Positions 20,492 through 38,930 of a stretch of 64,000 bases of DNA are shown in pieces. Source of the stretch: a virus. The notes beneath the pieces were generated by a model, which saw nothing but the letters and a program-made list of their open reading frames with translations, was not told the DNA's origin and did no database searches. The first letter of the stretch is position 1. Each line of letters starts with the position of its first letter. The stretch is from the UHGV virus genome UHGV-1351772; one strand, given 5' to 3'. A program made the position numbers and the translations under genes.

Positions 20492-21988
20492 TTATTTCTT
20501 TTTCGTCAGGAACTTCGGTTCTAGTCCATCGACAGCCATACCCAGAATGGTACGTGCAGTCAGTGTACGTTTACCACCTTTGGTTTCCTGGTCTTTAAAC
20601 ATCCAGTATTCTACCGTGTTGTCCAGAATTTCATTCCAGTCCCACTTCTCGTCAATCATTTTGTAAATCTCACCCATGCTGAGATGATACTTCATTTCAA
20701 GACGATGGTAGTTGTTTTGCATATAAGCAATTGCCGCCGTGATCTCTAAAGCGCGACGTAAGCGTGCGTTATCAGAAATCATATCACGGATTGTCGTGCG
20801 TTGGAATTTCACACCAGGTAGAATGTCCAGTTCTTTGATGGAGCCGCCACTACCGCTTGACGTAAAACCAAAGTCTGACTTCTTCAGCGTGTCACTTAAA
20901 TAGTGCCACAGGCTCAGGTGATATAACAGACCCATTTCCTGAGAGAAGATCATCTGGAATTTCACACCAGTGTGACCACCCTTCGCACGATACTGAGTAA
21001 AGGTGATAATCTTCAAGTCGTTTACCGAAGCATTCATCGCTTTAGAACGTGACGTCGGATAAAGTTCTTCGTTAACACCGGTCTGCGCGTTATAGCTCTG
21101 GTCTTTTTTCAGCTCCCCTGATTTCGTCGCGACGATAAAAGAGTTTGTTAAAAAGCTAAGCTGACGGCGAGGAATACCTGCGAATTTTAAATCGTCGTTG
21201 GCATCGTCAAGAATTTTCGCATTTGCTTTTTGTGCCTGACGGCCACCTGCCATCGCTTTCCCAGAGTCATCGGCCATCTGTGCCACGAAGCCCATGTAAA
21301 AACCACCACGTGCAAACGCAGACGGCCAGCGGCTCATCATATTCGATTTTTGCAGCGCATCGTGGGCGTTCAGGATGTTCTGATCAGAATCCCCAATATC
21401 CGTTTTTGCGTGCTTGTCTTCCAGCGAACTGGAATGCCACTCTGACAGGGAGTCGATAGAATAAAGCCAGGGGTCCAGGATTTCTTTTAACTTACGACGA
21501 ACCGGATCGGGGAACGGTGTTACGCGGGTTTTACCAGACATATACTGTTTGAAGCGTTTTTCAACTTCATCACGAATATAATCACTGTAATACTGTTCCC
21601 CAGGCATTACGTCAGAACCGACCAGGTTATAACGACCTTCGTGGATAAGTTCCAGTACGGATGTTCCGTCGTCGATACCGTTGGCGTTCATGGCAGAGAT
21701 GTACCCAGTTTCTAAACGATCGAGGGCAGCTGACACTTCTGTATCGTACTTAGAACCCCACTCTGCTTTATAACGTTGCAGGATTTGGAAAATACAGAAA
21801 TCTAACAAGGTGGATTTAAAAGTGTTACCGCGCCCTGCGAAACCCATGATGTGGGCAAAACCACCGTTAAGGTAGTACAAACCATCTTCACCTTTTTCGT
21901 AGTTACCTAAGGCATGATCCATGATGGTGTAAACGTTAAAACGTGGACGAATTACTTCACCGATAACTTGCTTAGTTGGGCCTGCCAT
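20492..21988 (-). CDS. Hypothetical protein with degenerate P-loop-like motif
   Basis: 498 aa; GGAG ribosome-binding site; N-terminal GFAGRGNTFKST resembles but does not match a Walker A box. Confidence 0.5.
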   Translation of the reverse strand: MAGPTKQVIGEVIRPRFNVYTIMDHALGNYEKGEDGLYYLNGGFAHIMGFAGRGNTFKSTLLDFCIFQILQRYKAEWGSKYDTEVSAALDRLETGYISAMNANGIDDGTSVLELIHEGRYNLVGSDVMPGEQYYSDYIRDEVEKRFKQYMSGKTRVTPFPDPVRRKLKEILDPWLYSIDSLSEWHSSSLEDKHAKTDIGDSDQNILNAHDALQKSNMMSRWPSAFARGGFYMGFVAQMADDSGKAMAGGRQAQKANAKILDDANDDLKFAGIPRRQLSFLTNSFIVATKSGELKKDQSYNAQTGVNEELYPTSRSKAMNASVNDLKIITFTQYRAKGGHTGVKFQMIFSQEMGLLYHLSLWHYLSDTLKKSDFGFTSSGSGGSIKELDILPGVKFQRTTIRDMISDNARLRRALEITAAIAYMQNNYHRLEMKYHLSMGEIYKMIDEKWDWNEILDNTVEYWMFKDQETKGGKRTLTARTILGMAVDGLEPKFLTKKK

Positions 21989-22003
21989 TTAGCGCTCCGA
22001 TAA

Positions 22004-22303
22004 TTAACGATTCTTGGTCGGAAGAAGAAGACGGCGGTTGTGCCAGAATTCAAAGTAGGTCTCTACCCACTCAGTAACTTCTTCCGCATTTTCAGGATAA
22101 GGGTTTTCAATAGACTCGAAACGGCGTTTATTACGCTCGTCAATTTCCAGTTCCATAACACGTTTACCGCTCGGGCACGACGTTACGCTCAAGACTTTTC
22201 CAACTTGAATAGGTTTACCGTTCTGACCTTTTTTAACAGGGGTCAGATAAATTTCCGGTTCTAAACGCGGTGTGGTGTTTCGAGTCAGTAATTTGATTTT
22301 CAT
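22004..22303 (-). CDS. Hypothetical protein
   Basis: 99-aa ORF. Confidence 0.4.
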   Translation of the reverse strand: MKIKLLTRNTTPRLEPEIYLTPVKKGQNGKPIQVGKVLSVTSCPSGKRVMELEIDERNKRRFESIENPYPENAEEVTEWVETYFEFWHNRRLLLPTKNR

Positions 22304-22341
22304 CGAGCTTTACCTTTATGGAAGAGTCTCGGTCATAAGGT

Positions 22342-22371
22342 TTGGGTGAACTGTAAAAAGACTTTACTATG
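22342..22371 (+). promoter_or_regulatory. Candidate sigma70-like promoter for rightward island gene
   Basis: TTGGGT - 18 nt - TACTAT about 30 nt upstream of the ATG at 22402; a perfect TATAAT also lies at about 22383-22388. Confidence 0.25.
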
Positions 22372-22401
22372 TAACCCTGACTTATAATCCGAGGTTTTAG
22401 A

Positions 22402-23190
22402 ATGAATGTAAATCCACTTGCAGCGTTATCTAGCTTCGCCGCTAAAGCGTCTGCAATCTTACCGAAAGGGTTTAGTGGCCCTCAACAAGAGATTGCATTA
22501 ACCACTTATGACGAGATGTCGGACGTTTCCAAGTGGATGCAACAAGAAAAATTCCTACACTTTGCGGGAATGTTGGTTATCGTTCCACCTGGGTTTAATA
22601 CCTACGTGATGGATCACTTGAACCGCTTAGAATCTGTATGGAGTTCACTACAAAACATCTATACGGGTATTCTGCTACCGGTCGATAAACAACTTTCGGC
22701 CCTTACACATGATGTGGGGGTACTGTCATTACCGATTGGTTTCCGTTACAAAAACGTTAATTTACCGTTACGTAATGTTAACCCGAAAGACCTGGTTAAC
22801 TTATTAGCGAAATCGTACACTAATAACGTTATTGACCAGCGACCAATTGAGAAGACGTACCACAGCGCGTCTGAGATTGACGTTGCGTTCAATCGTGCTA
22901 AAGCCCTGAACGTTGAAATTACGAAACGTTTACGGACGAATATCGACAAGTCAATCGAGTCCATTCGCACTACGTCAGAAATCTTGTCCGAACAAAACAT
23001 TCATCCGAATGTAGCAAAAGAACTGACGATGATGTTAGATTTTGCATCCGATTGGGTGGAGCTGTTTGGTCTGTTCATGAAACAGGTTAACGAGTTAATC
23101 GAATGCCTGAACGTTACTGCCGAACGCTTAAAAGCGCTTAAGGCAAACAAAAATAAAAAAGTAAAGTTACCCCTAGACCGTGTGGTCTAG
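22402..23190 (+). CDS. Hypothetical protein (rightward island)
   Basis: 262-aa ORF; GAGG upstream; terminator hairpin overlaps its 3' end. Confidence 0.5.
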   Translation: MNVNPLAALSSFAAKASAILPKGFSGPQQEIALTTYDEMSDVSKWMQQEKFLHFAGMLVIVPPGFNTYVMDHLNRLESVWSSLQNIYTGILLPVDKQLSALTHDVGVLSLPIGFRYKNVNLPLRNVNPKDLVNLLAKSYTNNVIDQRPIEKTYHSASEIDVAFNRAKALNVEITKRLRTNIDKSIESIRTTSEILSEQNIHPNVAKELTMMLDFASDWVELFGLFMKQVNELIECLNVTAERLKALKANKNKKVKLPLDRVV

Positions 23191-23210
23191 GGGTAAACTA
23201 TTTATTTCCC
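23170..23210. terminator. Bidirectional intrinsic terminator
   Basis: Stem CCCCTAGACC / GGTCTAGGGG, loop GTGT, A-run upstream and T-rich run downstream; sits between convergent genes. Confidence 0.6.
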
Positions 23211-24101
23211 ACGATAAAATCCAGAAATGTAACTCGGCGCTATCCATCGCCATTCGCGCCAGCGCATTTCTGACATCTTACCACACCATACACGCTTCCA
23301 ATGCGCACGACGGATATGTGCGGCGCAATAAATCGCCAAACAAACCTCGTGTCCTTCCTTGCGTTGCTGTTCTATATCTTCCCATTGTACCGGACTTACA
23401 TCTAAAACGACTGCTTCACTACGTGGGCGAATCTCTGTATCGGGAACATAACGAATGGTCCTTCCGCGAAATTCTTTCTTCTCACGTTCAGTACGTTTAA
23501 TTCGTGACGAAAGGTATAGTCCGATATAGACAGCGTCGAGTAGTCGTTGATTCTCCTTAACCGAAATAAGGAGCGGCTTTAGCTCGACGAAATCATCTTT
23601 ACTTTTATCGATTTTGTAAATCTCAAACTCCATGTATACCGATTCTTCACGTTCTTCGCATGACATCACAAAGAGAACTTCTTCGCCTTCGTAAAGACGT
23701 CTTCCGATAAATAACGTGATTGGACTTTCGTCGAGATTTACAGTAACCGAGAAAGTAAATGAAGGGATGGTTTCTATCCAGAAGTACGGGATGTTTTTTA
23801 GTCTCTCAGTTTTTGCTAAGAGTGCCATCAGTTCTTCATCCGAGATGATTTCAACAGCAGCGTATTGCCATCCTAGTCCCAGGGACTGCTTAATCAGTCT
23901 GGGAATCTGTTCGGTAACGCCATACTCTCGATAGGTCGGATCTTTAACTGGCATAAACGTTACGGGTATTTGACGTTTATGCTCGTTAATGAACCGAATA
24001 AAGCGGCACTGATCTAATCCGTGAATTGTTTGGTGTGCCTTTTCTATTTGTTCGCTCATGCGTCTTAGCGCTTTCCCGTAAAGTCTATTATTCGTTGTCA
24101 T
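23202..24101 (-). CDS. Hypothetical protein, paralog of 24127-25053 (shared basic Trp-rich C-terminal motif)
   Basis: Start set at MTTNNR with AGGAG upstream; C-terminus CAAHIRRAHWKRVWCG...WIAPSYISG. Confidence 0.5.
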   Translation of the reverse strand: MTTNNRLYGKALRRMSEQIEKAHQTIHGLDQCRFIRFINEHKRQIPVTFMPVKDPTYREYGVTEQIPRLIKQSLGLGWQYAAVEIISDEELMALLAKTERLKNIPYFWIETIPSFTFSVTVNLDESPITLFIGRRLYEGEEVLFVMSCEEREESVYMEFEIYKIDKSKDDFVELKPLLISVKENQRLLDAVYIGLYLSSRIKRTEREKKEFRGRTIRYVPDTEIRPRSEAVVLDVSPVQWEDIEQQRKEGHEVCLAIYCAAHIRRAHWKRVWCGKMSEMRWREWRWIAPSYISGFYRGK

Positions 24102-24126
24102 TTTAATACTCCTAAACACTTTTAGC

Positions 24127-25053
24127 TTAATTGTGGGGTACGTAGCCACGGACAAATGTAGGTGGAATCCAACAAAGTTTTCTCTTTCTTTCACCATTTC
24201 TAGGGCCGACCCAATATCTGCGCCAGTGAGCGCGACGGATGTGGGCAGCCTTAGCATGTTTGATACCCTGCATGGTTTTCAAGTCAGTGTTAAACCCTTT
24301 TAGATAATTCACTTGTCCTGGCGTGATATCTATCTTAACATCGCGTTCACGAGGTTTAACGTCGTAGCTAATACTACCGTTCTTTTTGATTTCTTTGAAC
24401 TTAATATCATTAAAAGACTCCCTGTAATTGGGCGGGATTAGCGTACACAGAAATATCATCGAAGTAGCGGCTTTGGCCAGAGATAACCATAGCATCTTTT
24501 CTTGTTCGTTCTCCACACCGTCGGCATAGTCGATTTCCACAAGCCCGTTTCCTGCGCTACGAAGCTCTAACGAACAAGTGGCAATTGTGGTAACGCCTTC
24601 TGTTAACCCGTAATCAGTATTTGTAGCAATTATAATAAACCTTCTCTTCCCGTTTTTTCGATAGCCGAGAAAGAAAGTCTCATCCTCTTTACCTACGTCG
24701 ATTGCTACAGTCCAAGTAGGTATAAAGTCCAACCATTCTTCAGGGAATTTACTGGGCATCTCAGTCTCGAAAACAAGTTCTCTAAGTGCTTGGTTGGATA
24801 TTAAGGAAGCACCACCGTATAGCCATCCAATTGCCAATGTTTGAGCGTGAAGGGAACGGGGATCTTTGAGACCTAACTCAGCGTCGTAAGGTATAAAGGC
24901 ATTGGTTAAATGGTTACGATTCTTTTTTATCCATTTCGAGACAGGATTTTCCTTTATTCGGTTTTCTTCCATGACATTTTCAAGATGCTGAGACCCCATT
25001 TGTCTAAGGCAGTCTTTAATACCTTTTACTTTTTTACTTTTGTACAAATACAT
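24127..25053 (-). CDS. Hypothetical protein, paralog of 23202-24101
   Basis: 308 aa; AGGAG upstream; C-terminus AAHIRRAHWRRYWVG...WIPPTFVRG. Confidence 0.5.
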   Translation of the reverse strand: MYLYKSKKVKGIKDCLRQMGSQHLENVMEENRIKENPVSKWIKKNRNHLTNAFIPYDAELGLKDPRSLHAQTLAIGWLYGGASLISNQALRELVFETEMPSKFPEEWLDFIPTWTVAIDVGKEDETFFLGYRKNGKRRFIIIATNTDYGLTEGVTTIATCSLELRSAGNGLVEIDYADGVENEQEKMLWLSLAKAATSMIFLCTLIPPNYRESFNDIKFKEIKKNGSISYDVKPRERDVKIDITPGQVNYLKGFNTDLKTMQGIKHAKAAHIRRAHWRRYWVGPRNGERKRKLCWIPPTFVRGYVPHN

Positions 25054-25068
25054 GGTTTATTCTCCTAA

Positions 25069-25107
25069 AATGGTTAAAAATAAAGTAACCCTAGCCGAAG
25101 CTAGGGT
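25069..25107 (-). terminator. Intrinsic terminator (leftward)
   Basis: Stem ACCCTAGC / GCTAGGGT, loop CGAA; T-run on the minus strand. Confidence 0.65.
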
Positions 25108-25112
25108 GTCTA

Positions 25113-25598
25113 TTAATCGATTTGGACGTAGTTCGGATAATTGGCTTTTAACCACTCCCACAACTGATATGCAAGTTGACTTTGATCGGCACTGATAAGA
25201 GCTACTATTTCAAGATAAACGCTTTCATTACTCCAAATCTGGCTATAAAAGCGTCGCCATTCAGGAGCAGTGTAGGGTACTATTACGTCAGGCATGTACC
25301 CGTTGTGCCAGCCATTAACTATCGAACGTAGGGTTTCGATACGGATGTCGTAAAACCGACGTCTGATAGAAGTCCATGTAATAGGCCCTGGCTGATCGAA
25401 GAAATTGTCCAGATTCATTAGTAATGTCGCACGATATCTCGCAACGATAACGCCAGCTGCCTGTGAAGCTATCCAAACAGCGTCCACTGTTTTTGGAGCT
25501 AACAAGTTACGTATCGACTGTTCCATGCGATCGCAGTGGTTCAGAAACTCATGGACAATGTCGCTATTAGAGAGATTGATAATTGCATTTACGTTCAT
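25113..25598 (-). CDS. Hypothetical protein
   Basis: 161-aa ORF. Confidence 0.45.
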   Translation of the reverse strand: MNVNAIINLSNSDIVHEFLNHCDRMEQSIRNLLAPKTVDAVWIASQAAGVIVARYRATLLMNLDNFFDQPGPITWTSIRRRFYDIRIETLRSIVNGWHNGYMPDVIVPYTAPEWRRFYSQIWSNESVYLEIVALISADQSQLAYQLWEWLKANYPNYVQID

Positions 25599-25599
25599 T

Positions 25600-26124
25600 T
25601 TATTGTCCTAAAATTGGGGAGAGTTTGTCTGCGGTGTTTAACAACGCTTTTGTAATTTCGTGGTTGGTCTCTTTTAGGATGGCGCAACAGAGAGTGGTAT
25701 AAACCTCGATTGCTAACGCGATTTCTTGTTCAGTCAGGCACGGTTCGGTACCGTCAATCCCGTAACGTTGCGCCGCATATTCAATTTCAAGTTTCAAACG
25801 TTTTCGTAGTGCCTCATCGTTAGTTAAACGCGTACACGCCCGATCGAAACGTCTATTGTAAGCCTCGATCTTGTGGACAATTTCGCGTCGCAGTTGGTCG
25901 ACATTTACGTTATCATCAAGAGTGATGGTGACGTTGTCAACTAAACAGTAATGTACTGTGTGTCGTAAGTTGTGTAATGTGGCGACAGTAACGACCCGCT
26001 CCTGATGGTCGCTAAAGCCATGAGCACCACAGAGCTTGCGTGCAACCGCGCCAGAGATTTTCTCCTCTAACGCTATCGGCGTGGCAATGGTTGTTTTCTT
26101 ACGAAGCTGAATTAAAATATCCAC
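25600..26124 (-). CDS. Hypothetical protein
   Basis: 174-aa ORF. Confidence 0.45.
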   Translation of the reverse strand: MDILIQLRKKTTIATPIALEEKISGAVARKLCGAHGFSDHQERVVTVATLHNLRHTVHYCLVDNVTITLDDNVNVDQLRREIVHKIEAYNRRFDRACTRLTNDEALRKRLKLEIEYAAQRYGIDGTEPCLTEQEIALAIEVYTTLCCAILKETNHEITKALLNTADKLSPILGQ

Positions 26125-28117: not shown

Positions 28118-29631
28118 TCAAGCTCCTTATCCGTCAATATTCGTTTGTTTGAATAATAGCCGCACCACAACCCATGATATTTTTCCCCAATATAAACCAA
28201 CGCGTACTCGATATACTGCCGTTCTGGACGCCGTACCGCCACGTAGAATCGTCCTTCTGGTTCTTTCATACGGTTGATTTCCGTACGCGTCGGTATGTCG
28301 ATACCACGAGTAAGGATAGTTTTAACCTTGTTTTTACTACCAGGGATATGGATGGTTACGTCAAAACCTTTATCTACGTTACGATAAAAATCTTTCTTCG
28401 GCTTACCTTTCTCATCGTAAAGCAGGTCAGTAATGTCGTTCATCACGACTGAGTTTTTCCCTTCCATGGCATCGCGTAACCAACCTGCAAGCTCATCACG
28501 AATCGTAATGCAGCGATAAGACAATAACGCGGGACGAAGAATTCGTGTAATCGAAAGATCTTCAAACATCCATAGGTTTTTGTCTTCGCTAAAATGCATC
28601 CGATCGACAGGAATACCGTTACCTGCGGCTTCTGCGAACTTCTTACGTTTTACGAATAAGTTAAAAACAACGGCGATGGGATCAAACTGACGTAAACGGG
28701 GCACCCCTTCCCACGCTTTCGCAGAGTGGGTATTTACCAACTCGTATACGTTGTTCCATGGTTCTTTGGTAAACATTACGCAGAATTGCGCGTCTGGAAT
28801 GTACTTACCAACGAAGACGATATCGTCCTTCTGTTTTGCATGGTTCCCACCGAACATGTAATAAAGTTTATTACCGTTAACTGTAACAGTGGGATGCGGT
28901 TCGTTCACCATCGGGTAACAGAACTTCGTAACACAGATATCGGGAAAAGCAGACAAATTGACGCCTTCACCAACAACTTCTGGTTGCTGATCTTCCTCAG
29001 GCATCTCGTCTTTTGACCAATACGGTGTATAGTCTAGCCCATCGCCTCGTGCCGAGATACTTGAACCCTTCCGTGCTAACTCGTCGGCACGCTCGTTTCC
29101 ATAACGTCCTGAATGCCCTTTAATTTTAAGGACACGAACACCTTTCCCTTCTTTCTTTAACCGCTGTTTAACCTCCCACATCCGTTGGATTAATTCCAAG
29201 TTCGCAATGGGCGTACCGTCTGCGCGACGCCAACCGCGTGCAGCCCAACCATCAATCCAATCGTTATACGTGTTGACAACGTAAGATGCGTCGATATAGA
29301 TAACATAGTTTTTAGCAACGAAAGGTGCATGTTCGAAAACGGTCAGGAAAGCCACGAGTTCTGCAACGTCGGAGTGTGACATTTTTGGTACAGGCACAAC
29401 ACCGTCAATAAACTCCACAGCTTCTGGTAAAGATGGAAGTTTTTCATCCTTGTTTATCTGGCGGTATCCTGACGTCGTAATCCCCTCGGGAATAGAGGGA
29501 TGGCGGTAAACCCGACCATCCTCAATCGTTTCACGATTAAATAAGTATCCATGAATCCCCGCTCCTGTACCGAGCGGGGAGGTCAAATGGCTACCATCCG
29601 TGTAAATTACTGCAACATCAACGTTCTTCAT
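28111..29631 (-). CDS. Type-1 RNase H domain protein with ~300-aa C-terminal extension
   Basis: N-terminal ~190 aa: VAVIYTDGS, YIDASYV, IKGHSGRYGNERADELARKG match the RNase HI catalytic core; remaining ~316 aa unassigned. Confidence 0.75.
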   Translation of the reverse strand: MKNVDVAVIYTDGSHLTSPLGTGAGIHGYLFNRETIEDGRVYRHPSIPEGITTSGYRQINKDEKLPSLPEAVEFIDGVVPVPKMSHSDVAELVAFLTVFEHAPFVAKNYVIYIDASYVVNTYNDWIDGWAARGWRRADGTPIANLELIQRMWEVKQRLKKEGKGVRVLKIKGHSGRYGNERADELARKGSSISARGDGLDYTPYWSKDEMPEEDQQPEVVGEGVNLSAFPDICVTKFCYPMVNEPHPTVTVNGNKLYYMFGGNHAKQKDDIVFVGKYIPDAQFCVMFTKEPWNNVYELVNTHSAKAWEGVPRLRQFDPIAVVFNLFVKRKKFAEAAGNGIPVDRMHFSEDKNLWMFEDLSITRILRPALLSYRCITIRDELAGWLRDAMEGKNSVVMNDITDLLYDEKGKPKKDFYRNVDKGFDVTIHIPGSKNKVKTILTRGIDIPTRTEINRMKEPEGRFYVAVRRPERQYIEYALVYIGEKYHGLWCGYYSNKRILTDKELEC

Positions 29632-29633
29632 TC

Positions 29634-30368
29634 TTAATCCCTGGTTAATTGATCACGAATCTGCGGCGCAACATACTCGCCCGTTTTCAGTTCTTCGTGA
29701 CAGGCTTTGGCGCGTTCAAACCCGTATTGGCGAGTGACCAAAGCGAGGTGATAAATACGTGCCGTGGTGTAGGCTTCTTTTGCTGCATCCCACATAGCGT
29801 GGTGCTCAAAAGCGGGCTTACCGCGTGTCCAGTAAATTTGCTCTACGGTTAGGTCAGGCTCGAAACCAAATGCAAAGGCTAAACGTTCTGCGGTACGATC
29901 GCTATCCAGTGCACTGAATTTACGGAACTTCCCTGGCGGAATATCACATTGTGCGAACGCGTTCATGAAAATAGGTGCATCGAAGTCAGGACCACGCATG
30001 GTAATAACAAACTCATGTTTTGCGGTGATCTCCCCGAGCCATTTTTGCATCGCCCACAGCGCGTCTGGCAATGCTGTCGTCCCACCCCATGCTTCCGCAT
30101 AGGCTTCACGAGACGGTGCGTATTCGGGTTCGCCTTTACCTTCCCACCAACCAACGGTTTGTGGGTCTTCGTGGAAAATGGCTTTTGCTTTAGGATCGTT
30201 AGGATCGATCCTGATGTATGAGGAACCGACCATTTTCAATGTAGGGACGTCAAAAGCCACTAAACCTGCACTTAACAGATAAGCATCGGGACGTAATGAT
30301 TTGGTTTCAGCATCAGCGCCAATAACCAGCGTCGGTGTGTACGGGGTGACAATTTTTGGGTAGGTCAT
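29634..30368 (-). CDS. DEDDh-type (DnaQ-like) 3'-5' exonuclease
   Basis: 244 aa; Exo I LVIGADAET, Exo II GPDFDAPIF, Exo III HHAMWDAAKEAY. Confidence 0.6.
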   Translation of the reverse strand: MTYPKIVTPYTPTLVIGADAETKSLRPDAYLLSAGLVAFDVPTLKMVGSSYIRIDPNDPKAKAIFHEDPQTVGWWEGKGEPEYAPSREAYAEAWGGTTALPDALWAMQKWLGEITAKHEFVITMRGPDFDAPIFMNAFAQCDIPPGKFRKFSALDSDRTAERLAFAFGFEPDLTVEQIYWTRGKPAFEHHAMWDAAKEAYTTARIYHLALVTRQYGFERAKACHEELKTGEYVAPQIRDQLTRD

Positions 30369-30407
30369 GTTGAATTCTCCTGTTAGTCTACATTAAAATA
30401 GTTGCAA

Positions 30408-30455
30408 ACGTTAAAAAGAAAGACCCTCCTGTACCACGAAAGGGTACAGGAGGGG
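30408..30455 (-). terminator. Intrinsic terminator (leftward)
   Basis: Stem CCCTCCTGTACC / GGTACAGGAGGG; T-run on the minus strand. Confidence 0.65.
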
Positions 30456-30458
30456 GTG

Positions 30459-30917
30459 TCAGTACAAACACGATGTCAAGTATTGGTTGTACGAATCGAG
30501 TAGTGTCTGACGGTCGGAGCGGTAATTCCACAACAAATTATTGAGTTTACGCGATAGGTCACGGCTAATCTCCTGGGGCGTTAAAGAGCTTTCGTCAAGA
30601 GATAAGCGTTCAGGTACAACATGTAACTTCGGTAACTCATAACGCTCACAAAGTGGAGCCAGCATTGGTGGGCTCCAGCCACGTTTAACGGCTTGTTGGT
30701 TTAAATTTCGGGTGTAGACATAAACGTAGTAAGCATAGGTGTTGACATCCGCAACATACTCACGCATTGCGTTATTGTCAATTTTCCAATTCACCATTAT
30801 TGGTGGTGTAGGAGGAAGTTCCAGTGGCCTATAAGCTGGACGTTTAACTTCGTCGCCGTAGCTATTACTCACCAACCCCACGAACACCATCATGATGAAT
30901 AACAGCATTTTCATCAA
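30459..30917 (-). CDS. Secreted protein (Sec signal peptide)
   Basis: 152 aa; N-terminal MMKMLLFIMMVFVGLVSNSYG; no lipobox. Confidence 0.45.
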   Translation of the reverse strand: MMKMLLFIMMVFVGLVSNSYGDEVKRPAYRPLELPPTPPIMVNWKIDNNAMREYVADVNTYAYYVYVYTRNLNQQAVKRGWSPPMLAPLCERYELPKLHVVPERLSLDESSLTPQEISRDLSRKLNNLLWNYRSDRQTLLDSYNQYLTSCLY

Positions 30918-31421
30918 TCACTCCTTAGAAGACGTTAACGTCTTTATGATCTCCTGTCGAAAACTGTTCGCATTTAAATTGCCAACAGGTCTCGCCGAAG
31001 CCTCTTTACGTTGTTCTGGTGTTGAAGCTGGATTAACAGGAGTTTCTGGTTTTGTCGAAGACAGATCCTTCGCCGTACCGCTCGCTTTCGATGAATTAAA
31101 CGTGCTTTCATATGGCGGTTTCTGGCCGAGGCAAACGAAGAGCCTGTCGTATAACTTCCCATTATCTTCTTTTAGTTTATCTCGATCTTGTTTCATCTCT
31201 TGGTAAGACTGCGACATATACGTGTCATGAGACTGCACTGCAACGAGCGCGTGAAACTGTTGTACATAGGCGTAGGAGACGAAGCCAGAATACGACAACA
31301 AGATCGTGATGATTAAAGTCATTATCTTGCTTGCTCTTGATACGTTTTCTCCTTCTCCTGGTTTAAATGCTTCCATTAACATCTGAAGGAAGAACGGAAG
31401 CACTTTAAAAAATGAACCCAT
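30918..31421 (-). CDS. Membrane protein with one TM segment and Pro/Thr-rich C-terminal region
   Basis: 167 aa; hydrophobic IMTLIITILLSYSGFVSYAYV; coiled-coil-like segment after the TM. Confidence 0.45.
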   Translation of the reverse strand: MGSFFKVLPFFLQMLMEAFKPGEGENVSRASKIMTLIITILLSYSGFVSYAYVQQFHALVAVQSHDTYMSQSYQEMKQDRDKLKEDNGKLYDRLFVCLGQKPPYESTFNSSKASGTAKDLSSTKPETPVNPASTPEQRKEASARPVGNLNANSFRQEIIKTLTSSKE

Positions 31422-31446
31422 TGCTCACCTCGGAGTATTTTTAATT

Positions 31447-32820
31447 ATGTTAGACTTACAAGGTTTTATTCAGATACCGGCACTGTTTGACAATCAGGAC
31501 GGCGTCACCGCTCCGGTGGGCGAGCTGTCGGATTTGACACTCTCGTACGCGAAGAGTAAACAGACGTTTACTAAAACCAATTTGCAAGTTCAATTGGTGA
31601 CTTTTACGTCTAAACGAGAAAAACAGACGGTTGTTGTACCAGCCGAATTTTCTGATCATATTCTAACCGTTTCTCAATGGATTTACCAGCAAGCCATCTT
31701 GGGGAATCTGAGAAATGACGAACTCGAATTCCAGCGCCTGTTATTAGGCCAATTCCAATCAACCATTTCTGGTGTTCAGTCTGGTGCGATGATACAGACG
31801 AACAGTAACTGGTTCCCACGTTGGGTGAGCTGGAAATATGAAGTAACGGCAGATCAAGTACAAGATGACACTGATGTAGATAATCAGATCATTGTTTGGT
31901 TCTCGGATGAAGACTTCGATCAAGATTACACAGGGTTCGAAATCGAAGTACAGATGCCGATTTCGCCAATCGACACATTTTTGTCGACCAAGTCAGTCGT
32001 TGAAAAGGCGATGGAAGGGTTTAACCTTACCGAACACCATAAGAAAATCAATGAGTTAATGGCAGGGTTTCCTTATACCGCCATCCAAACCAACTACTAT
32101 ACTTGGCACGATCAAGAAAACTACGAGTCTACCCTAGTTGTCCCAATGTCGGTTATTATCTACGGACGTGCGGGAAAAAACCCAACGAAAATAAAGCAAG
32201 CGTTGCGAGAACATATTCTCGCTAATTCTAGCTTTACTGTCCCTATCGGGGTAAAAGTATTTCCCGAAATTTTCACTACCACGAAATTTACAATTGTCCC
32301 TGGATGGAAAATTCGTGGGATACCCAATGAGGAAGATGTGGCGGCGCTTTATTCCCCCATCCTTCCATATGATTTCTGGGTCAAAGCTATCAGTCGGTTT
32401 GGAGAATGGGCAGACCAGACGGTAGCAGAAAGAAATACTAAAACGATCAGTAAACCTACAACAGACGTAACTGACTTACCAACAGTTTATAAATCATTAA
32501 ACTGTGTTGTAATCAGTGGGCCGGAAAACGATACACGGAAAGCGACCTTACACGAAACTATCCCGGATTATGCGTTAATTGCGACGACTAACCCTGATAT
32601 TGCGCGTATGTCGAAAACAACGACCGAATGGTTGGCGTTATTCTTCCAGGCACTTATTGCTGCGGAAGAATACCACCCGTATCAAACCAGCTTAGATGTT
32701 GTAAAACTGGTCGATGAGGCTGACCCTGATAACTACTTCTGGGTGTTTGAATACGACAACGTAGAATATCGTATCCTGTCTCGGAAAGCGAAATGGTACA
32801 CCGAGTTAGACGAGGAGTAA
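31447..32820 (+). CDS. Hypothetical protein (rightward island)
   Basis: 457-aa ORF. Confidence 0.5.
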   Translation: MLDLQGFIQIPALFDNQDGVTAPVGELSDLTLSYAKSKQTFTKTNLQVQLVTFTSKREKQTVVVPAEFSDHILTVSQWIYQQAILGNLRNDELEFQRLLLGQFQSTISGVQSGAMIQTNSNWFPRWVSWKYEVTADQVQDDTDVDNQIIVWFSDEDFDQDYTGFEIEVQMPISPIDTFLSTKSVVEKAMEGFNLTEHHKKINELMAGFPYTAIQTNYYTWHDQENYESTLVVPMSVIIYGRAGKNPTKIKQALREHILANSSFTVPIGVKVFPEIFTTTKFTIVPGWKIRGIPNEEDVAALYSPILPYDFWVKAISRFGEWADQTVAERNTKTISKPTTDVTDLPTVYKSLNCVVISGPENDTRKATLHETIPDYALIATTNPDIARMSKTTTEWLALFFQALIAAEEYHPYQTSLDVVKLVDEADPDNYFWVFEYDNVEYRILSRKAKWYTELDEE

Positions 32821-32823
32821 TGA

Positions 32824-33348
32824 ATGGCTACGCGTTTACCACTCCAGGTACCAGTCAACACCACGGGACTGTTTAAAGTAAAAACACCATTTACTTTGGC
32901 CGAGACCGTCATTTATACGGTAGAAGCGTCACGTACCTTCCCAGATTTAGTACGTCAGAATATTGACGTTTATAACTCGTATTACCAGCCAGTAGGGCTA
33001 GGACGTGAAGAATATTTAGCAGATGCGAATGTTAGTGCGTCGATTCTGACATTTAAATCTCGGGACGGTCAAGTTGTATACATACCTGACACCTACCTGG
33101 AATCATACCCAGGTTTATCCGGGATCACGTATCAACGAAATGTGTTAGTGGTAGATTTGGCACTGGTACCGGATTACGTGAAAGTGTCGTCTATAACAAA
33201 AGACGTTTCAGATATTCTCACGCATACACTAGGGATTGAGCCGAAAGTTGAAATTACAACGCTCGAGTATGAGGGGAAGGTAACGGAGGAACAACACTTG
33301 CAGATGGAAGCGGCACGAAAAATAAAATTCGTGAATCTATTCCATTAG
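32824..33348 (+). CDS. Hypothetical protein (rightward island)
   Basis: 174-aa ORF immediately after 31447-32820. Confidence 0.5.
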   Translation: MATRLPLQVPVNTTGLFKVKTPFTLAETVIYTVEASRTFPDLVRQNIDVYNSYYQPVGLGREEYLADANVSASILTFKSRDGQVVYIPDTYLESYPGLSGITYQRNVLVVDLALVPDYVKVSSITKDVSDILTHTLGIEPKVEITTLEYEGKVTEEQHLQMEAARKIKFVNLFH

Positions 33349-33452
33349 GTGAGAAAGTTGCTGCGTTGACAGAAGAGAACAAAAATTAAAAGAGTTAAAC
33401 AACCAAATGTTAGAGATTCTTAAAGCTAACGGGTTAGTTAACTAAAAAAGAT

Positions 33453-33490
33453 TACCCTACTCCTTCGGGAGTAGGGTAGCTTTTATTTTA
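33453..33490. terminator. Bidirectional intrinsic terminator
   Basis: Stem CCCTACTCC / GGAGTAGGG, loop TTCG, T-run TTTTATTTT downstream and A-run upstream. Confidence 0.75.
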
Positions 33491-34039
33491 AATGTCAACT
33501 TCTAGTTTACGGTAATCGATGACGCCTTGAGCAATCATAGCAGCAACATCGTTCCAGGTACGAAAAATGAAGTAAACTGTGTCTCCGTTTAAAAAGATGT
33601 TAGATTCTTTATCCGGAAAATCGTCTTCGCTGAGGTAGTAGTAGGGTTTGTCGAAAGGGAAGTCGCGCTCATCAGAGGAACCAAGTACCGCATAACGATT
33701 GCCACAATCAAAAAGAATCTTCCAACCAGACATTTCACTATTAGCGTCAATACGATCGTCGATTTCAACGGTAATAGGAGAACGATCAAGAAAGCTGATT
33801 GTAACCTCCCCGTTATGCTGTCGTTTAAATCGACGAATATCCGTAGGCACAATTTCAGATGCTGCTATAAGGGAATAAAGTTGTGTTACGGTGATCTTTT
33901 TGTAAACACTATCGCCATCCCACAAACGATCAAATAAGAAATTAGCCAGGAAATTTATATCCTTTAAACGTGAACGGAAAACAGAACCACGACGAATACC
34001 GTAAGCCAGATGAGTTAAATATTCAGACGATGGAAACAT
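33488..34039 (-). CDS. Hypothetical protein, possible paralog of 34101-35033
   Basis: 183 aa; shares MxFPSE... N-terminus and NGDTVYFIF.W-like segment with the next gene. Confidence 0.45.
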   Translation of the reverse strand: MFPSSEYLTHLAYGIRRGSVFRSRLKDINFLANFLFDRLWDGDSVYKKITVTQLYSLIAASEIVPTDIRRFKRQHNGEVTISFLDRSPITVEIDDRIDANSEMSGWKILFDCGNRYAVLGSSDERDFPFDKPYYYLSEDDFPDKESNIFLNGDTVYFIFRTWNDVAAMIAQGVIDYRKLEVDI

Positions 34040-34054
34040 TTTAATACTCCTAAG

Positions 34055-34092
34055 GTGGAAAAAGAATTAACCCTACTCCCGGAGGAGTAGGG
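34055..34092 (-). terminator. Intrinsic terminator (leftward)
   Basis: Stem CCCTACTCC / GGAGTAGGG, loop CGGA; T-run on the minus strand. Confidence 0.7.
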
Positions 34093-34100
34093 GATTTAAA

Positions 34101-35033
34101 TTACTTTTTGGTTTGACCCAGGTTTTCAAGAACCAGTTCACGAATGTACTTCTGAGTACGTTTCTTCGGCGGTAAAGCCATAAGGGTGTCAACGATTCCC
34201 TGCCCACCGATAACCTTGCTGACGAGTTGTTGAACTTGGAAGAGTTCTGCTTCTTCGTCACTGATTTCATTAGCTTGGTCTTTCTGACACAATGCTTCTA
34301 CCAGGTCAGCTACGGATATTTCATTTTCGTCACCAGGGAAATCCAGGTTTAACGATTCGAAAACATCACGCTTAACGAGCACAGATTTCAGATCATCGTA
34401 GTTTTCACAAACGGCGACTTCTGTGCCAGGTACCGTTTCTTCTTCGTCTTGATCTTCATTCTCAGCGGAGAGGTAACTTACTTCTGTTGCGTGGAATGTT
34501 GCGTCAGCTTTTCTCAGGACGTAGCTCACATGCGACCAATTGCTCAGGATGAAGTAGACAACACCCCCATTTAATCCGATATTGCCCTGGCGAAGTTCGA
34601 GAGCAATTTCCAGGCGGCGTGAAATCTGCCCCAAGTCAAAGAAAGACTCGTCGCGTGCCGCAACAACTTCGTACTGATTCACCCCTTGTTCTACAACAAC
34701 GAACCAGTTATCCGGGAGAGGATACGGGTTGCGCATGAAAGAAAGTTCGTTCCCTACGCCTGGGTCAACAGTAACGGATGTATGGCGCATTCCCATGGAG
34801 AAGTTGAACGTATCCCCATTTAGAACCGCAATTGCACCGTCAATCGGAAGAATTTTGGTGGTACGATCAATAGAGAAAATCTCTTTCTGCGTAATTGAAG
34901 GCTGATTACTGCCTAGGAAGTGATTACGCAGAAAAGCAGCGGTTGGGCCTACGCTGGCTTGCAGTATATGGTGGTTATAACGACGACGCAGTGTGTTAGC
35001 CAGTTCGTAAATTACTTCTGATGGAAAAGTCAT
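34101..35033 (-). CDS. Hypothetical protein with acidic C-terminal region
   Basis: 310-aa ORF. Confidence 0.45.
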   Translation of the reverse strand: MTFPSEVIYELANTLRRRYNHHILQASVGPTAAFLRNHFLGSNQPSITQKEIFSIDRTTKILPIDGAIAVLNGDTFNFSMGMRHTSVTVDPGVGNELSFMRNPYPLPDNWFVVVEQGVNQYEVVAARDESFFDLGQISRRLEIALELRQGNIGLNGGVVYFILSNWSHVSYVLRKADATFHATEVSYLSAENEDQDEEETVPGTEVAVCENYDDLKSVLVKRDVFESLNLDFPGDENEISVADLVEALCQKDQANEISDEEAELFQVQQLVSKVIGGQGIVDTLMALPPKKRTQKYIRELVLENLGQTKK

Positions 35034-35086
35034 TTTAATAGTCCTCTTTTAGGTTTGTTCAAATCAACTAAGGGTTATGTAAAAAG

Positions 35087-35566
35087 TTAAAATAATGGCA
35101 AGTTACGCCATTGTCCTACCGAGTAAAAAGCTTTTGGATGTTTACGGATATACGCTTTCGCTTCTTCTGGCAACCAACGGTCACCTACCAGTTTTTGTTG
35201 TGCAACAATTACTGCCATCAACAAATAAGGGTTTTTCGCACCGGGAAACTTTGCATTGGTTTCTAGCGCAATATCCAACATTGACGACCAGCCCAGTAAT
35301 TTATGCTGCGCCGGTAAACGTTCTTCAATATACATCAGCCAGTTCATGATTTGTTTAGGTTTATACGGACAGGTATAATTCGCCCAACACACCATGACGA
35401 ACTTAATAGCCTTCGCAATCACCCATACAGGGACAGTCACGAAAAGGCAGAAAATAGCCAACTGCGATGCGGGCGCTTCGACAAAAGTAATCGCCACAAG
35501 GACCATAAACAATTCAAGTACCACAAACCAAAAACGCGTTGGATAACGCCAAATGAACTTTATCAT
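35087..35566 (-). CDS. Membrane protein (two predicted N-terminal TM segments)
   Basis: 159 aa; FWFVVLELFMVLVAITFV and LAIFCLFVTVPVWVIAKAI. Confidence 0.45.
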   Translation of the reverse strand: MIKFIWRYPTRFWFVVLELFMVLVAITFVEAPASQLAIFCLFVTVPVWVIAKAIKFVMVCWANYTCPYKPKQIMNWLMYIEERLPAQHKLLGWSSMLDIALETNAKFPGAKNPYLLMAVIVAQQKLVGDRWLPEEAKAYIRKHPKAFYSVGQWRNLPLF

Positions 35567-35587
35567 AACTCTGCTCCTTTAGGGAAT

Positions 35588-35628
35588 GAAAATAAAAGTA
35601 CCCCTTACTCCACAAAGGGTAAGGGGTA
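35588..35628 (-). terminator. Intrinsic terminator (leftward)
   Basis: Stem CCCCTTAC(C) / GGTAAGGGG; T-run on the minus strand. Confidence 0.6.
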
Positions 35629-35632
35629 GGGA

Positions 35633-36142
35633 TTAGAAGAACGGCTGATTTGGAATGACAGCGTACTCTAAAATGAACATGTGTTCTGGGGCGTCTTCTT
35701 TACGCCAGACCTTGTGTGTCGACACAAGTTTTTCCAGAATCGTTAGAAAACTACGCTGGCAGTATGTGTTTTCACCAAGCAGTAGATTTTGAAGTTCTAC
35801 AGTAGCGTCCATATACGCCTGTTTAAAGACTAAATTACGGTTATACTGCCCGGTAAAATTCCAAAGCAAGACTTTCCCTTCTTCGGTTTCTTTTACCGTT
35901 GGTCGTAAACCACAAATCCACAGTAAGGCAAGGTTGACGTTCCAGTCAAACTCTAAACCTTCTTCTTCGTCATCACCGAATGCTGTGGGTAAAGCATCGT
36001 AAAATTCGTGTTTCTCTGCGAATTCTTCATCCGACTTAATCTCGTCTTCGATACTGCTTCGGACGATACTGTAAACGTCTTTCGCGGTCAATTGTGCGGC
36101 TTTTGTAATGCCTTTATACCAATCGGTTACTACGATGCTCAA
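35633..36142 (-). CDS. Hypothetical protein
   Basis: 169-aa ORF. Confidence 0.45.
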   Translation of the reverse strand: MSIVVTDWYKGITKAAQLTAKDVYSIVRSSIEDEIKSDEEFAEKHEFYDALPTAFGDDEEEGLEFDWNVNLALLWICGLRPTVKETEEGKVLLWNFTGQYNRNLVFKQAYMDATVELQNLLLGENTYCQRSFLTILEKLVSTHKVWRKEDAPEHMFILEYAVIPNQPFF

Positions 36143-36864
36143 AGGGTAACTCCTCTATTGATTGGAAAACTCGTGTTTATCGTATCCCAAATTCTACTAA
36201 CTTCCGCCAGTTGAATCTGACGTGGTGTTTTCTTCGCAAACGCAAGCTGACGTGGGGCCGAGCCCACAACAACAGGCACATCGATTTTCGCGCTATAGAA
36301 CGCGGCGTCTTTCATAAAGCCTGCCATTTCTCGTTGTGCTGCTCGAGATTTGCTTTTGATTCGCGTGTGAGCGCCACTTTCACCCCAGTGGTAAGCTAAC
36401 GCAATTTCAGCCATGGTGGGCTTGCGTTTGAGTCGTTTGGTTAACCCCTTCTCAAGATGTTTAACATACGCGGCAGCCAGCAAAACAGCATTACGCGGAT
36501 TATATAAATCGGCGTTCTGACTAAGACCTAATTCTTTTCCATAAAGCCTTAGCAGATTACGCTTGGTACTTGGAAGCATCTGTACCAGGCTGTGTGCTCG
36601 TGAGCTTTTGTTGTAAGCCTTGGGATCAAAACGTGATTCGCGATAAATCAGCGTAATCATCAGCTTAGGATCAACGCCTTGCTTTCGTGAGATTTCCACA
36701 ATTAACGGGCTGACTTTTTCGAACCGATGTTGGATTTGTGCAAACTCACGCTGATGCTTAGAATGTGGCGTTGACGTTGACGCCTGTGCGTTAAACGCGA
36801 AAAGTGTTACCAGTAAAAGAAAGAAGATACGAAACATTTTGTTTCTCCAGTTGGATTTATACAT
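36139..36864 (-). CDS. Secreted lytic transglycosylase (SLT domain with signal peptide)
   Basis: 241 aa; signal peptide MFRIFFLLLVTLFAFNAQAS; SLT motif YRESRFDPKAYNKSSRAHSLVQMLPST and ALAYHWGESG. Confidence 0.65.
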   Translation of the reverse strand: MYKSNWRNKMFRIFFLLLVTLFAFNAQASTSTPHSKHQREFAQIQHRFEKVSPLIVEISRKQGVDPKLMITLIYRESRFDPKAYNKSSRAHSLVQMLPSTKRNLLRLYGKELGLSQNADLYNPRNAVLLAAAYVKHLEKGLTKRLKRKPTMAEIALAYHWGESGAHTRIKSKSRAAQREMAGFMKDAAFYSAKIDVPVVVGSAPRQLAFAKKTPRQIQLAEVSRIWDTINTSFPINRGVTL

Positions 36865-36937
36865 TTCCGTATTCCGTAAGACGAAATGACGGCGCGGACA
36901 GCTAATACTCCTTTGTTGTGTGCCCTAATGATAATAT

Positions 36938-37498
36938 CTATTTAAAAGAGTTTGGAATTAATGACTCTGCTTCTTGATACAACTTATCAGGTAAGTATAA
37001 CGTGTAGCGTTGCCTCCTCGGTTCAAGTTTTTTGTAAAGCCACAAAAAGATTTCTTGTCTTTCCCAGGAATCTAACCACCCGTTTGCCATTCCAAGTGGA
37101 GGGATAGCAACGCTGGTATCCAGATCCTCAGCACAATCCGCCAGTGCGGTAATGCCCGCAGTAACATAAGAAACCTGGGACTTTAAGCGCCAATGGGTTT
37201 TCGTGGGGAGCAAGATACACTTTTCGTCAGAGTAAACGTAAACGTTTCCAATCTTAATTTCGTTTTCACGACACCGCTTACGATAATTCTGGTAAAGGTT
37301 GGGGTAGCGTTCACGACACGCGAGTGCAATGCCGCGACCCATCGCTCCTACGCAGTTAATGGTAACGACTTTATAGTCTTCGGGCGCATTAAAAAGATCG
37401 TTATCAATTTCAGATTCTTTACGTACCGTTAACATAACGAAACGCCCGGAGTTGATGTGTAGTATTAAAACGTGTACCGCCGATTGATAGCTCGACAA
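36938..37498 (-). CDS. Macro domain protein (TARG1/OARD1-like, Macro_2 type)
   Basis: DLFNAPEDYKVVTINCVGAMGRGIALACRERYP and VAIPPLGMANGWLD fit the TARG1-like macro-domain pattern; ORF-finder start is TTG, a more likely ATG is at about 37435. Confidence 0.5.
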   Translation of the reverse strand: MSSYQSAVHVLILHINSGRFVMLTVRKESEIDNDLFNAPEDYKVVTINCVGAMGRGIALACRERYPNLYQNYRKRCRENEIKIGNVYVYSDEKCILLPTKTHWRLKSQVSYVTAGITALADCAEDLDTSVAIPPLGMANGWLDSWERQEIFLWLYKKLEPRRQRYTLYLPDKLYQEAESLIPNSFK

Positions 37499-37522
37499 GT
37501 ATAGCGATATATGTTTTACCCA

Positions 37523-37891
37523 TTATCGATTTTTCGTAATCCATTGCTTGACCGCCGCTTCTAAACCCTCGTGTTGTAAGCCCAGGCGTTGCATAGTCAG
37601 TGCCAAGTTAAGCGTGTGTACGACCTGCTCACGGAACCGATGATCGTTCATACGGTCCCAGACCTTCTCTACTGAAATATTGTGTTTCCAGAGCAAATAA
37701 GCTTCACGACACGATGCACGACGAACTAAGCTAGGTTTAACAAAAGGCAACTCGATTTCAGGCAAGTAACCTAAAAGCTTAACTAACGGCGTTACTTGTG
37801 TCTTACCGAAGTCGCCACACTGATAACAAATTTGTAGAATATCAATTTCATTCAACGGTATACCGTAAATTGATGGGTTCTCTGTGAACAT
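37523..37891 (-). CDS. Hypothetical protein
   Basis: 122-aa ORF with GAGGAG ribosome-binding site. Confidence 0.45.
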   Translation of the reverse strand: MFTENPSIYGIPLNEIDILQICYQCGDFGKTQVTPLVKLLGYLPEIELPFVKPSLVRRASCREAYLLWKHNISVEKVWDRMNDHRFREQVVHTLNLALTMQRLGLQHEGLEAAVKQWITKNR

Positions 37892-38093
37892 TCATATTCT
37901 CCTCAGGCTCGAAATGTGTTTCGGGTGGCAACGTCCCTAAAGCCCCTTGGATACAAGCCGTCAGTGAAGGTTTGCCGAAACAGACCTTACCTATTGTCCC
38001 CACATTGGGATGCTGTAAGAACGCTTTCGCACGTTCGTATTCCTTCCAACAAATACTCGTATCCAAACCACCCACTCCGTACGATTTTAACAT
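37848..38093 (-). CDS. Hypothetical protein
   Basis: 81-aa ORF with AGGAGAG upstream; 44-nt overlap with the downstream gene. Confidence 0.35.
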   Translation of the reverse strand: MLKSYGVGGLDTSICWKEYERAKAFLQHPNVGTIGKVCFGKPSLTACIQGALGTLPPETHFEPEENMNVHREPINLRYTVE

Positions 38094-38159
38094 AATTAGC
38101 TCTCCTGACGTAAATTTCTCACACTCATAGTGAGGTACGCCAAGAGAGCTTTATTGTTT

Positions 38160-38609
38160 TTAGAATGTTTTGCTAAAATCGACCCACTCACGATCGCGTG
38201 AGTAAACCGCCTGATAGCCGCGTCGGATGAAATACTCTTTTGCTTCTTTACATTTCGCATACATGCCAGTAACAATCTCGCCGAAAACTTCATCAGCTGC
38301 AATTGCTTTGAAAATCTCTTTCATTACACCCCGTTGACGATAGTCTGGGAGCACGTATACCGAACGTATCTTAAGTGAACCGTTACGATTCCGATAACTA
38401 CAGTATCCTACCGCGACATCATCCTGATACACCAGAACTATGCAGTTACCTTCGATCAGCTGTCGCGCATTTAACTTCGGCACCGACGTTTTGATTTTCA
38501 GTAACGTGGCCTGGTGGTCTAAGTAACGGTAGTGTAGTTTGAGTAAATCGGCAGCTTGTCGCTCACCGACTTTAGAAGATGCGTTCAACAAATAAATTTC
38601 CATTTGCAA
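38160..38609 (-). CDS. GNAT-family N-acetyltransferase
   Basis: 149 aa; motif A-like IRSVYVLPDYRQRGVMKEIFKAI. Confidence 0.55.
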   Translation of the reverse strand: MQMEIYLLNASSKVGERQAADLLKLHYRYLDHQATLLKIKTSVPKLNARQLIEGNCIVLVYQDDVAVGYCSYRNRNGSLKIRSVYVLPDYRQRGVMKEIFKAIAADEVFGEIVTGMYAKCKEAKEYFIRRGYQAVYSRDREWVDFSKTF

Positions 38610-38635
38610 ACCTTAGAGACGCAAAAAAAGTAAAA

Positions 38636-38764
38636 TTAAAACCAACGCGCGATGACGAAAGCCGCAGCGGCTAATATGGCTGTGGTGATTATTAATCCAC
38701 CCCATGAAAGTTCCGCGTCGTATAGTGCGGATATCGCTACATTCGTAGCGTTTATCGTGGTCAT
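38636..38764 (-). CDS. Small hydrophobic peptide (42 aa, C-terminal TM)
   Basis: Hand-translated: MTTINATNVAISALYDAELSWGGLIITTAILAAAAFVIARWF; AGGAG upstream; below ORF-finder length cutoff. Confidence 0.35.
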   Translation of the reverse strand: MTTINATNVAISALYDAELSWGGLIITTAILAAAAFVIARWF

Positions 38765-38821
38765 TTTCTGCTCCTGTCAATACCCTCACACCGGAGGGTA
38801 TCTTCTGGATTATCTGGGTGG

Positions 38822-38920
38822 TTAATCTTCGAATGCCCAACGGTGACGTTTAATCAGCCAGTTTAAACCTTTACCAATTAACCACAACGAGCCAAGTGTT
38901 AACAGAACCCCTACAACCAT
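38822..38920 (-). CDS. Small hydrophobic peptide (32 aa, N-terminal TM, basic tail)
   Basis: Hand-translated: MVVGVLLTLGSLWLIGKGLNWLIKRHRWAFED; AGGAGAGGG upstream. Confidence 0.35.
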   Translation of the reverse strand: MVVGVLLTLGSLWLIGKGLNWLIKRHRWAFED

Positions 38921-38930
38921 ATTCCCTCTC

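Follow-up and report, generated by a model that had tools for sequence, protein, structure and literature searches.

What might two adjacent, divergent copies of a protein with a strongly basic, tryptophan-rich tail accomplish for a phage? The question is raised by a gene pair in the UHGV virus genome UHGV-1351772, of which a stretch of 64,000 nucleotides was analyzed (hereinafter the window). The upstream member, gene A (24127..25053, minus strand), codes for a protein of 308 amino acids (aa), and the downstream member, gene B (23202..24101, minus strand), for one of 299 aa; the two are co-oriented and separated by 25 nt. A first-pass annotation of this DNA had recognized them as tandem paralogs of about 300 aa and could place them in no known family. 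We find that both are members of the AcrVA2/FinQ family (PF26125), as established by sequence profile and fold. By analogy with the characterized members of that family, we propose, with a probability of roughly 0.6, that they act as polypeptide-directed silencers of mRNA in a Seoulvirus-like phage, directed at two targets that are more probably not Cas12a.

The paralogy of the two proteins is far beyond what is expected by chance: open reading frames (ORFs) of the predicted size lie at both places, and a BLASTP comparison of gene A with gene B yields 26% identity across 286 aa (E=9e-21), thereby bearing out the earlier description of the pair. Two central motifs, also pointed out in the first-pass annotation, are present in both proteins, namely GW.Y.....IS (IGWLYGGASLIS in gene A and LGWQYAAVEIIS in gene B) and W...IP..T (WLDFIPTWT in gene A and WIETIPSFT in gene B). 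Both genes end in HIRRAHW[RK]RxW, the C-terminus of gene A reading AAHIRRAHWRRYWVGP...WIPPTFVRG and that of gene B AAHIRRAHWKRVWCGK...WIAPSYISG; these strings had been quoted exactly, albeit in reverse order relative to the coordinates. When the six-frame translation of the window was searched with the pattern H.R[RK].HW, it was recovered in two places only, genes A and B, and a third copy of the family elsewhere in the window was hence rejected. In the sequence, an AGGAG ribosome-binding site lies 8 nt upstream of the ATG of either gene (25062..25066 for gene A and 24109..24113 for gene B, both minus strand). For gene B, the start at 24101 is favored by this site, by the same initiating methionine in the orthologs P0004 and P0005, and by independent gene calls on metagenome contigs, which also give 299 aa; a mechanically extended version of 351 aa, opening at 24257, overlaps gene A, is without support and was rejected.

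To which family, then, do these proteins belong? Both fall within phrog_6160 of the PHROGs database, a cluster of unknown function (4.5e-36 and 7.3e-18). When gene A alone was searched with phmmer against all PDB sequences, the one real match was AcrVA2 (7CI1/7CI2; E=5.6e-5), with the alignment landing on the C-terminal motif (HAKAAHIRRAHWRRYWVG versus HTKRPHIRRGHWHGYWQG) and pairing HIRRAHWRRYW of gene A with HIRRGHWHGYW of AcrVA2. Gene B alone retrieved no match from the PDB sequences. A profile of seven sequences (A1), comprising genes A and B and five close relatives, matched AcrVA2 at E=0.025, which is weaker than gene A by itself, and against 1.84 billion cluster representatives it recovered 616 proteins at E<=1e-3, mostly of 300-380 aa, with the matching region at the C-terminus. 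A profile from a 60-sequence alignment of full-length family members (A2) matched residues 8-318 of the 323 of AcrVA2 (7ci1_A) at E=3.4e-43. With an independent hidden Markov model built from 47 distant members, from which the window proteins and AcrVA2 had been left out, AcrVA2 reached 158 bits, and genes A and B reached 107 and 74 bits, respectively. In precomputed Pfam tables, both proteins and every one of their orthologs are assigned to PF26125, 'AcrVA2-like'. Scanning A, B and P0001-3 against a local copy of Pfam-A returned nothing because this library has no PF26125 model, AcrVA2 itself likewise matching nothing in it; hence, this result is not evidence against membership. NCBIfam gave no match for the pair, and PADLOC only a chance-level match of gene B to Csx19 (E=0.018). 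A three-dimensional model of gene A, based on the 60-sequence alignment (an earlier AF2 model from seven sequences, with a predicted local distance difference test score of 47, was unusable), is predicted to adopt the three-domain fold of AcrVA2. No recognizable fold or profile of a nuclease or initiator (HUH, HNH endonuclease or replication initiator) was found, and the idea of an endonuclease or replication initiator was rejected on the fold search. Thus, the pair does not represent a new class of proteins; the family is already curated in Pfam, and the supposition that no known family would accommodate it has been overturned by searches that assign both proteins confidently.

The shared C-terminal string can be interpreted through AcrVA2. 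In gene A it comprises H271-I-R273-R-A-H276-W (24223..24243, minus strand), and in gene B H262-I-R264-R-A-H267-W (23298..23318, minus strand), both located by regular expression and equivalent in the family alignment to H286, R288 and H291 of AcrVA2. Upon adding residues 7-317 of AcrVA2, rebuilt from the HMMER alignment, to the 60-sequence alignment, the columns of H286, R288 and H291 were invariant in 61/61 members. Within the 60 sequences, H271, R273, H276 and W295 (gene A numbering) are invariant, in agreement with the earlier impression of an unvarying His/Arg/Trp string, and W77, P104, P112, W277, W281, G283 and P298 are near-invariant. The histidine and arginine positions are also functionally critical, as had been surmised: in AcrVA2, H286A, R288A and H291A abolish the knock-down of the target and leave stable Cas12a binding intact (Marino et al., bioRxiv 10.1101/2022.11.29.518452). 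As the string aligns with residues needed for knock-down rather than for binding, we identify it from the alignment as the predicted effector motif of the AcrVA2/FinQ family, with its essential residues intact in both A and B. The conserved residues of the N-terminal half are also recognizable, namely W79 of AcrVA2 (W77 in gene A, W78 in gene B), which is a tryptophan in 55/61 members and Y or F in the others, and D89 (D88 in gene B, N87 in gene A), which is D in 38/61 and N in 7/61; mutations of either cause partial loss of function in AcrVA2 (bioRxiv 10.1101/2022.11.29.518452). These positions conform to family membership notwithstanding N87 of gene A. In many viral contigs of 10-100 kb unrelated to jumbo phages (IMG/VR, L016-L073), HIRRAHW or a near variant ends single-copy genes of this family. 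Even between very different phages, the effector tail has changed far less than the rest of the protein.

The C-terminal 42 aa have an isoelectric point of 11.8 in gene A and 10.6 in gene B, and so basic a tail would be compatible with contact with RNA or the ribosome. An invariant His-x-Arg-x-x-His arrangement in this setting would also suit catalysis on nucleic acids, as expected if the pair belonged to a new nuclease or replication-initiator family with a new catalytic His/Arg/Trp motif, and a direct RNase activity of the AcrVA2/FinQ family remains compatible with the data. However, the match of the 60-sequence profile to AcrVA2 and the fold search contradict such a new family, which we regard as very improbable.

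AcrVA2, the founding member of the family, is the only protein from a bacterial system reported so far to destroy a specific mRNA via the nascent polypeptide. It cuts mRNA and protein of Cas12a, which serves in bacterial immunity, more than 10-fold, in a manner independent of promoter and codon sequence and dependent on translation (Marino et al., bioRxiv 10.1101/2022.11.29.518452), and it recognizes the nascent N-terminus of its target on the ribosome, namely the LSKT peptide of Cas12a (bioRxiv 10.1101/2022.11.29.518452). By analogy, the variable N-terminal and middle domains of A and B would recognize a specific polypeptide, and the conserved basic C-terminal H-x-R-x-x-H-W module would trigger destruction of the mRNA under translation, such that the target protein would never be made. 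As the two paralogs are divergent, they would be directed at two different targets, which we consider more probably to be proteins of host defence or of competitor elements than Cas12a.

Conservation is uneven along the proteins. Relative to its 69-71% identical orthologs P0002 and P0003, gene A is 80-100% identical over residues 201-308 and only 32-56% identical over residues 126-200 (24454..24678, minus strand); this low ortholog identity makes the fast-evolving middle a candidate determinant of target specificity. Gene B shows a comparable dip against P0005, to 28% identity at residues 151-175. In the gene A model the variable stretch is predicted to comprise the middle beta-sheet and the next helix, and it includes E185, the position of AcrVA2 D195. 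Such a gradient would be expected of a protein in which a conserved effector tail is coupled to a surface that recognizes the target and is still evolving.

The identity of the phage and the distribution of its relatives bear on what these targets might be. Among the features of the window are a giant tail fibre/transglycosylase, paralogous giant virion proteins, an RNase H-like ribonuclease, an SbcC-like protein and a UvsX-like recombinase of 498 aa (20492-21988, minus strand; phrog_97, 1.5e-55), the last of which is 81% identical to a protein of Salmonella phage SPN3US and its relatives, where it is termed a 'hypothetical protein'. SPN3US and these relatives belong to the genus Seoulvirus of the family Chimalliviridae, and the window, as assessed from its encoded proteins, is that of a Seoulvirus-like jumbo phage of the Chimalliviridae. 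A megablast search of 22000-26000 against the INPHARED phages found no match; hence, searches at the protein level were needed. The locus is collinear with those of SPN3US and EC001, an E. coli phage of the same species as SPN3US: a gene for RNase H, 5-6 small genes, the site in question, a convergent gene of 251 aa, a gene of 99 aa and the UvsX-like gene follow each other in all of them. At this site, SPN3US has no copy of the family, the 62 bp found there including the downstream hairpin. EC001 has one copy (MGA_211, our P0011; 307 aa, with HMRRAHW) with its own upstream hairpin, and the window lineage has two, as do metagenome contigs of ~220-225 kb (L003, L007-L015). Two copies are also present in the circular 222,441-bp 'plasmid unnamed1' of Enterobacter ludwigii 51A:C (NZ_CP134650.1; L006), which is collinear over 28517-39434, with RNase H, small genes, the tandem pair, the convergent gene and the UvsX-like gene. 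RefSeq lists this replicon as a 'plasmid', typed as non-mobilizable; it is almost certainly the genome of a Seoulvirus-like jumbo phage that was either harbored by the isolate or assembled together with it, and gives a hint of Enterobacter as a host.

We examined 67 loci of the family, of which an IMG/VR scan contributed 63. A single family gene was present within ±4 kb in 58/67, and two copies in 8/67, all of the latter from the window lineage and with A preceding B in every case. The single-copy homologs of other Chimalliviridae (EC001; Erwinia phages Asesino, ChrisDB, Yoloswag and RisingSun; Dickeya phages AD1/JA13), which belong to PHROG 6160 and are annotated as 'hypothetical', resemble A and B in falling in the same subfamily of the tree, with 26-33% identity and an HxRRAHW motif, and in EC001 also in occupying the same syntenic site; they differ in being present as one copy, the A-then-B tandem being confined to the window's lineage of ~220-225 kb. 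The RisingSun protein A0A223LH45, encountered as a BFVD match, bears the UniProt name 'Putative mycothiosynthase' and is probably a mis-annotated AcrVA2-like protein. In a neighbor-joining tree, the clades of gene A, of the single-copy chimallivirus proteins (P0008-13) and of gene B group together as a single subfamily from jumbo phages, in which gene B branches outermost, the identities between these clades being 21-30%. Judging by the sequences, the duplication is old and has been retained. Between SPN3US (L002 5700-5795) and EC001 (L001 4735-5800) the difference amounts to a cassette consisting of a hairpin and the AcrVA2-like gene; 'CGG..TCCG' and 'AAATAAAATAAAGCC' are still present in SPN3US and resemble remnants of the upstream hairpin and of the 3' end of the gene in EC001, and this suggests that SPN3US lost the cassette by deletion, rather than EC001 having gained it by insertion.

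The pair is bracketed by hairpins on both sides. Downstream, a bidirectional terminator hairpin with a perfect 13-bp stem and T-runs on both strands (23167..23196) lies 5 nt past the stop of gene B, between it and the convergent plus-strand gene 22402..23190, the last codons of which fall within the hairpin; equivalents are present in L003, EC001 and SPN3US. A terminator belonging to the pair itself had been described here; the hairpin is indeed present, but it is common to the pair and the convergent gene. Upstream, a hairpin with an 8-bp stem, a TTCG loop and a T-run (25088..25107, minus strand) separates gene A from the preceding gene (stop 25113); it is conserved in the related 224-kb contig L003, and in EC001 the corresponding position is occupied by another hairpin. 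The pair constitutes an accessory, terminator-bracketed two-gene cassette. The presence of the family in 0, 1 or 2 copies at the same site, together with the gradient of conservation within the proteins, gives it the character of an accessory element in an arms race.

What, then, would the two proteins silence? The most immediate answer would be that both are true type V-A anti-CRISPRs (Acrs) that knock down the Cas12a of the host as AcrVA2 does, given that they share with it the family, the fold and the essential HxRxxH motif, and that huge phages encode proteins which cluster with AcrVA2 and have been put forward as Acrs (PMC7162821). Like AcrVA2 of a Moraxella bovoculi prophage (7CI1/7CI2), A and B are close to the ~300-320 aa range, match the profile over the full length, have the H-x-R-x-x-H-W motif at the extreme C-terminus and a conserved tryptophan (W79) in the N-terminal half, and are carried by a mobile element. 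However, their identity to AcrVA2 is only 13-16%, and they reside as two tandem paralogs in a jumbo phage that is lytic and nucleus-forming and probably infects Enterobacteriaceae, as opposed to a single gene in a Moraxella prophage. Moreover, AcrVA2 contacts the Cas12a 620-636 peptide via E98, D129 and D195 (structure 7CI2), an interface that is dispensable in vivo (bioRxiv 10.1101/2022.11.29.518452). Of these three mapped contact residues only E98 is kept, a count to be read with that dispensability in mind: D129 lies in an insertion that A and B do not have, and D195 aligns with E185 of gene A and S180 of gene B. This argues for a target other than Cas12a, as does the biology of the hosts, since the relatives are phages of Salmonella, E. 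coli, Erwinia and Enterobacter, in which Cas12a is rare. The phage nucleus of the Chimalliviridae already shields jumbo-phage DNA from DNA-targeting CRISPR systems (PMC7162821), and most of the ~1,800 AcrVA2 homologs, some of them in megaphages, occur in hosts usually without Cas12a and probably have other targets (bioRxiv 10.1101/2022.11.29.518452). A single target is also hard to square with two divergent copies. Taking these observations together, we consider an anti-Cas12a role for both proteins improbable.

A precedent for non-CRISPR targets in Enterobacteriaceae is provided by FinQ, the fertility-inhibition protein of I-like and F-like E. coli plasmids, which Marino et al. assign to the same family on the grounds of the HxR motif and a C-terminal domain predicted to be similar, and which lowers F tra mRNA in E. 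coli, a host without Cas12a (bioRxiv 10.1101/2022.11.29.518452). The likeness to FinQ is taken from its published description, and FinQ is plasmid-borne and single-copy, unlike A and B. It raises the alternative that the pair serves to silence genes of plasmids or phages that reside in, or co-infect, the same cell rather than host immunity, with which the accessory presence or absence of the gene among near-identical phages would be in accord, as expected of a gene for competition. Yet A and B are no closer to plasmid homologs: in a tblastn search of gene A against 72,556 plasmids the only match was the mis-filed jumbo-phage genome, and no plasmid homologs were reached. This alternative, which we hold to be unlikely, amounts to a sub-case of the silencing mechanism with another class of targets, from which it is inseparable in silico.

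We thus favor polypeptide-directed silencing of mRNA, inferring by analogy its coupling to translation, the derivation of its specificity from the variable region and the non-Cas12a nature of its targets. Several points weigh against this proposal. Structural modelling covered gene A only. Gene A has an asparagine, N87, where AcrVA2 has D89, the aspartate being kept in gene B and in the orthologs P0002 and P0003. At an identity to AcrVA2 of only 13-16%, the activity could have diverged, and relaxed constraint could also account for the variability of residues 126-200. For AcrVA2 itself, direct RNase action, contact with the ribosome and recruitment of a host RNase are all candidates for the chemistry of the effector.

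As for the surroundings of the pair, the flanking gene 22402-23190 belongs to phrog_4682, of function unknown to PHROGs, and the one on the other side, 25113-25598, is without a PHROG match. The flanking genes accordingly show no informative PHROG that would point to an acr locus, and, compared with AcrVA2, no acrVA1-like neighbor was identified, no search aimed at Acr or anti-CRISPR-associated (Aca) genes having been made. A sigma-70 promoter scan around the pair gave 3 sites, fewer than in shuffled sequences (6.9); as chimalliviruses use their own RNA polymerases, no promoter was assigned to the pair. Farther away, the ORF at 51-6041 (plus strand; 1,996 aa) matches the tail-fibre cluster phrog_3201 and, within it, residues 1614-1843 match a transglycosylase. 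The three consecutive ORFs at 52661-56983, 56994-61178 and 61273-62751 (plus strand; 1440, 1394 and 492 aa) match the same PHROGs 7557, 8078, 7449 and 2163 (virion structural); on these matches, they are read as giant virion proteins that are paralogous to one another and encoded in tandem.

That megaphages and huge phages carry homologs of AcrVA2 has been described before (bioRxiv 10.1101/2022.11.29.518452; PMC7162821). The possible novelties are modest: a tandem of A followed by B that is conserved in, and confined to, one Seoulvirus-like lineage, the polymorphism of 0, 1 or 2 copies at a single hairpin-flanked site, and a sharp difference between the effector region and the recognition region. 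In practical terms, A, B and their orthologs in RefSeq and GenBank, all currently 'hypothetical protein', can be re-annotated as AcrVA2-like. The locus offers two divergent, adjacent copies in a lineage repeatedly seen in metagenomes, along with natural variants of 0, 1 and 2 copies in phages of tractable hosts such as E. coli, Salmonella and Enterobacter, and the near-frozen effector tail set against the fast-evolving middle provides material for finding the non-CRISPR targets of the family. A more specific form of our proposal, which we advance tentatively and at somewhat less than even odds, is that A and B are a matched pair of silencers, each with its own non-Cas12a target in the cytoplasmic defences of the host or in a competitor element, in which residues ~126-200 would serve as a programmable 'address' and HxRxxHW as the common effector. 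If true, the Seoulvirus locus could be used as a tractable system in enterobacteria to identify the targets of the AcrVA2/FinQ family and to dissect its mRNA-decay step.

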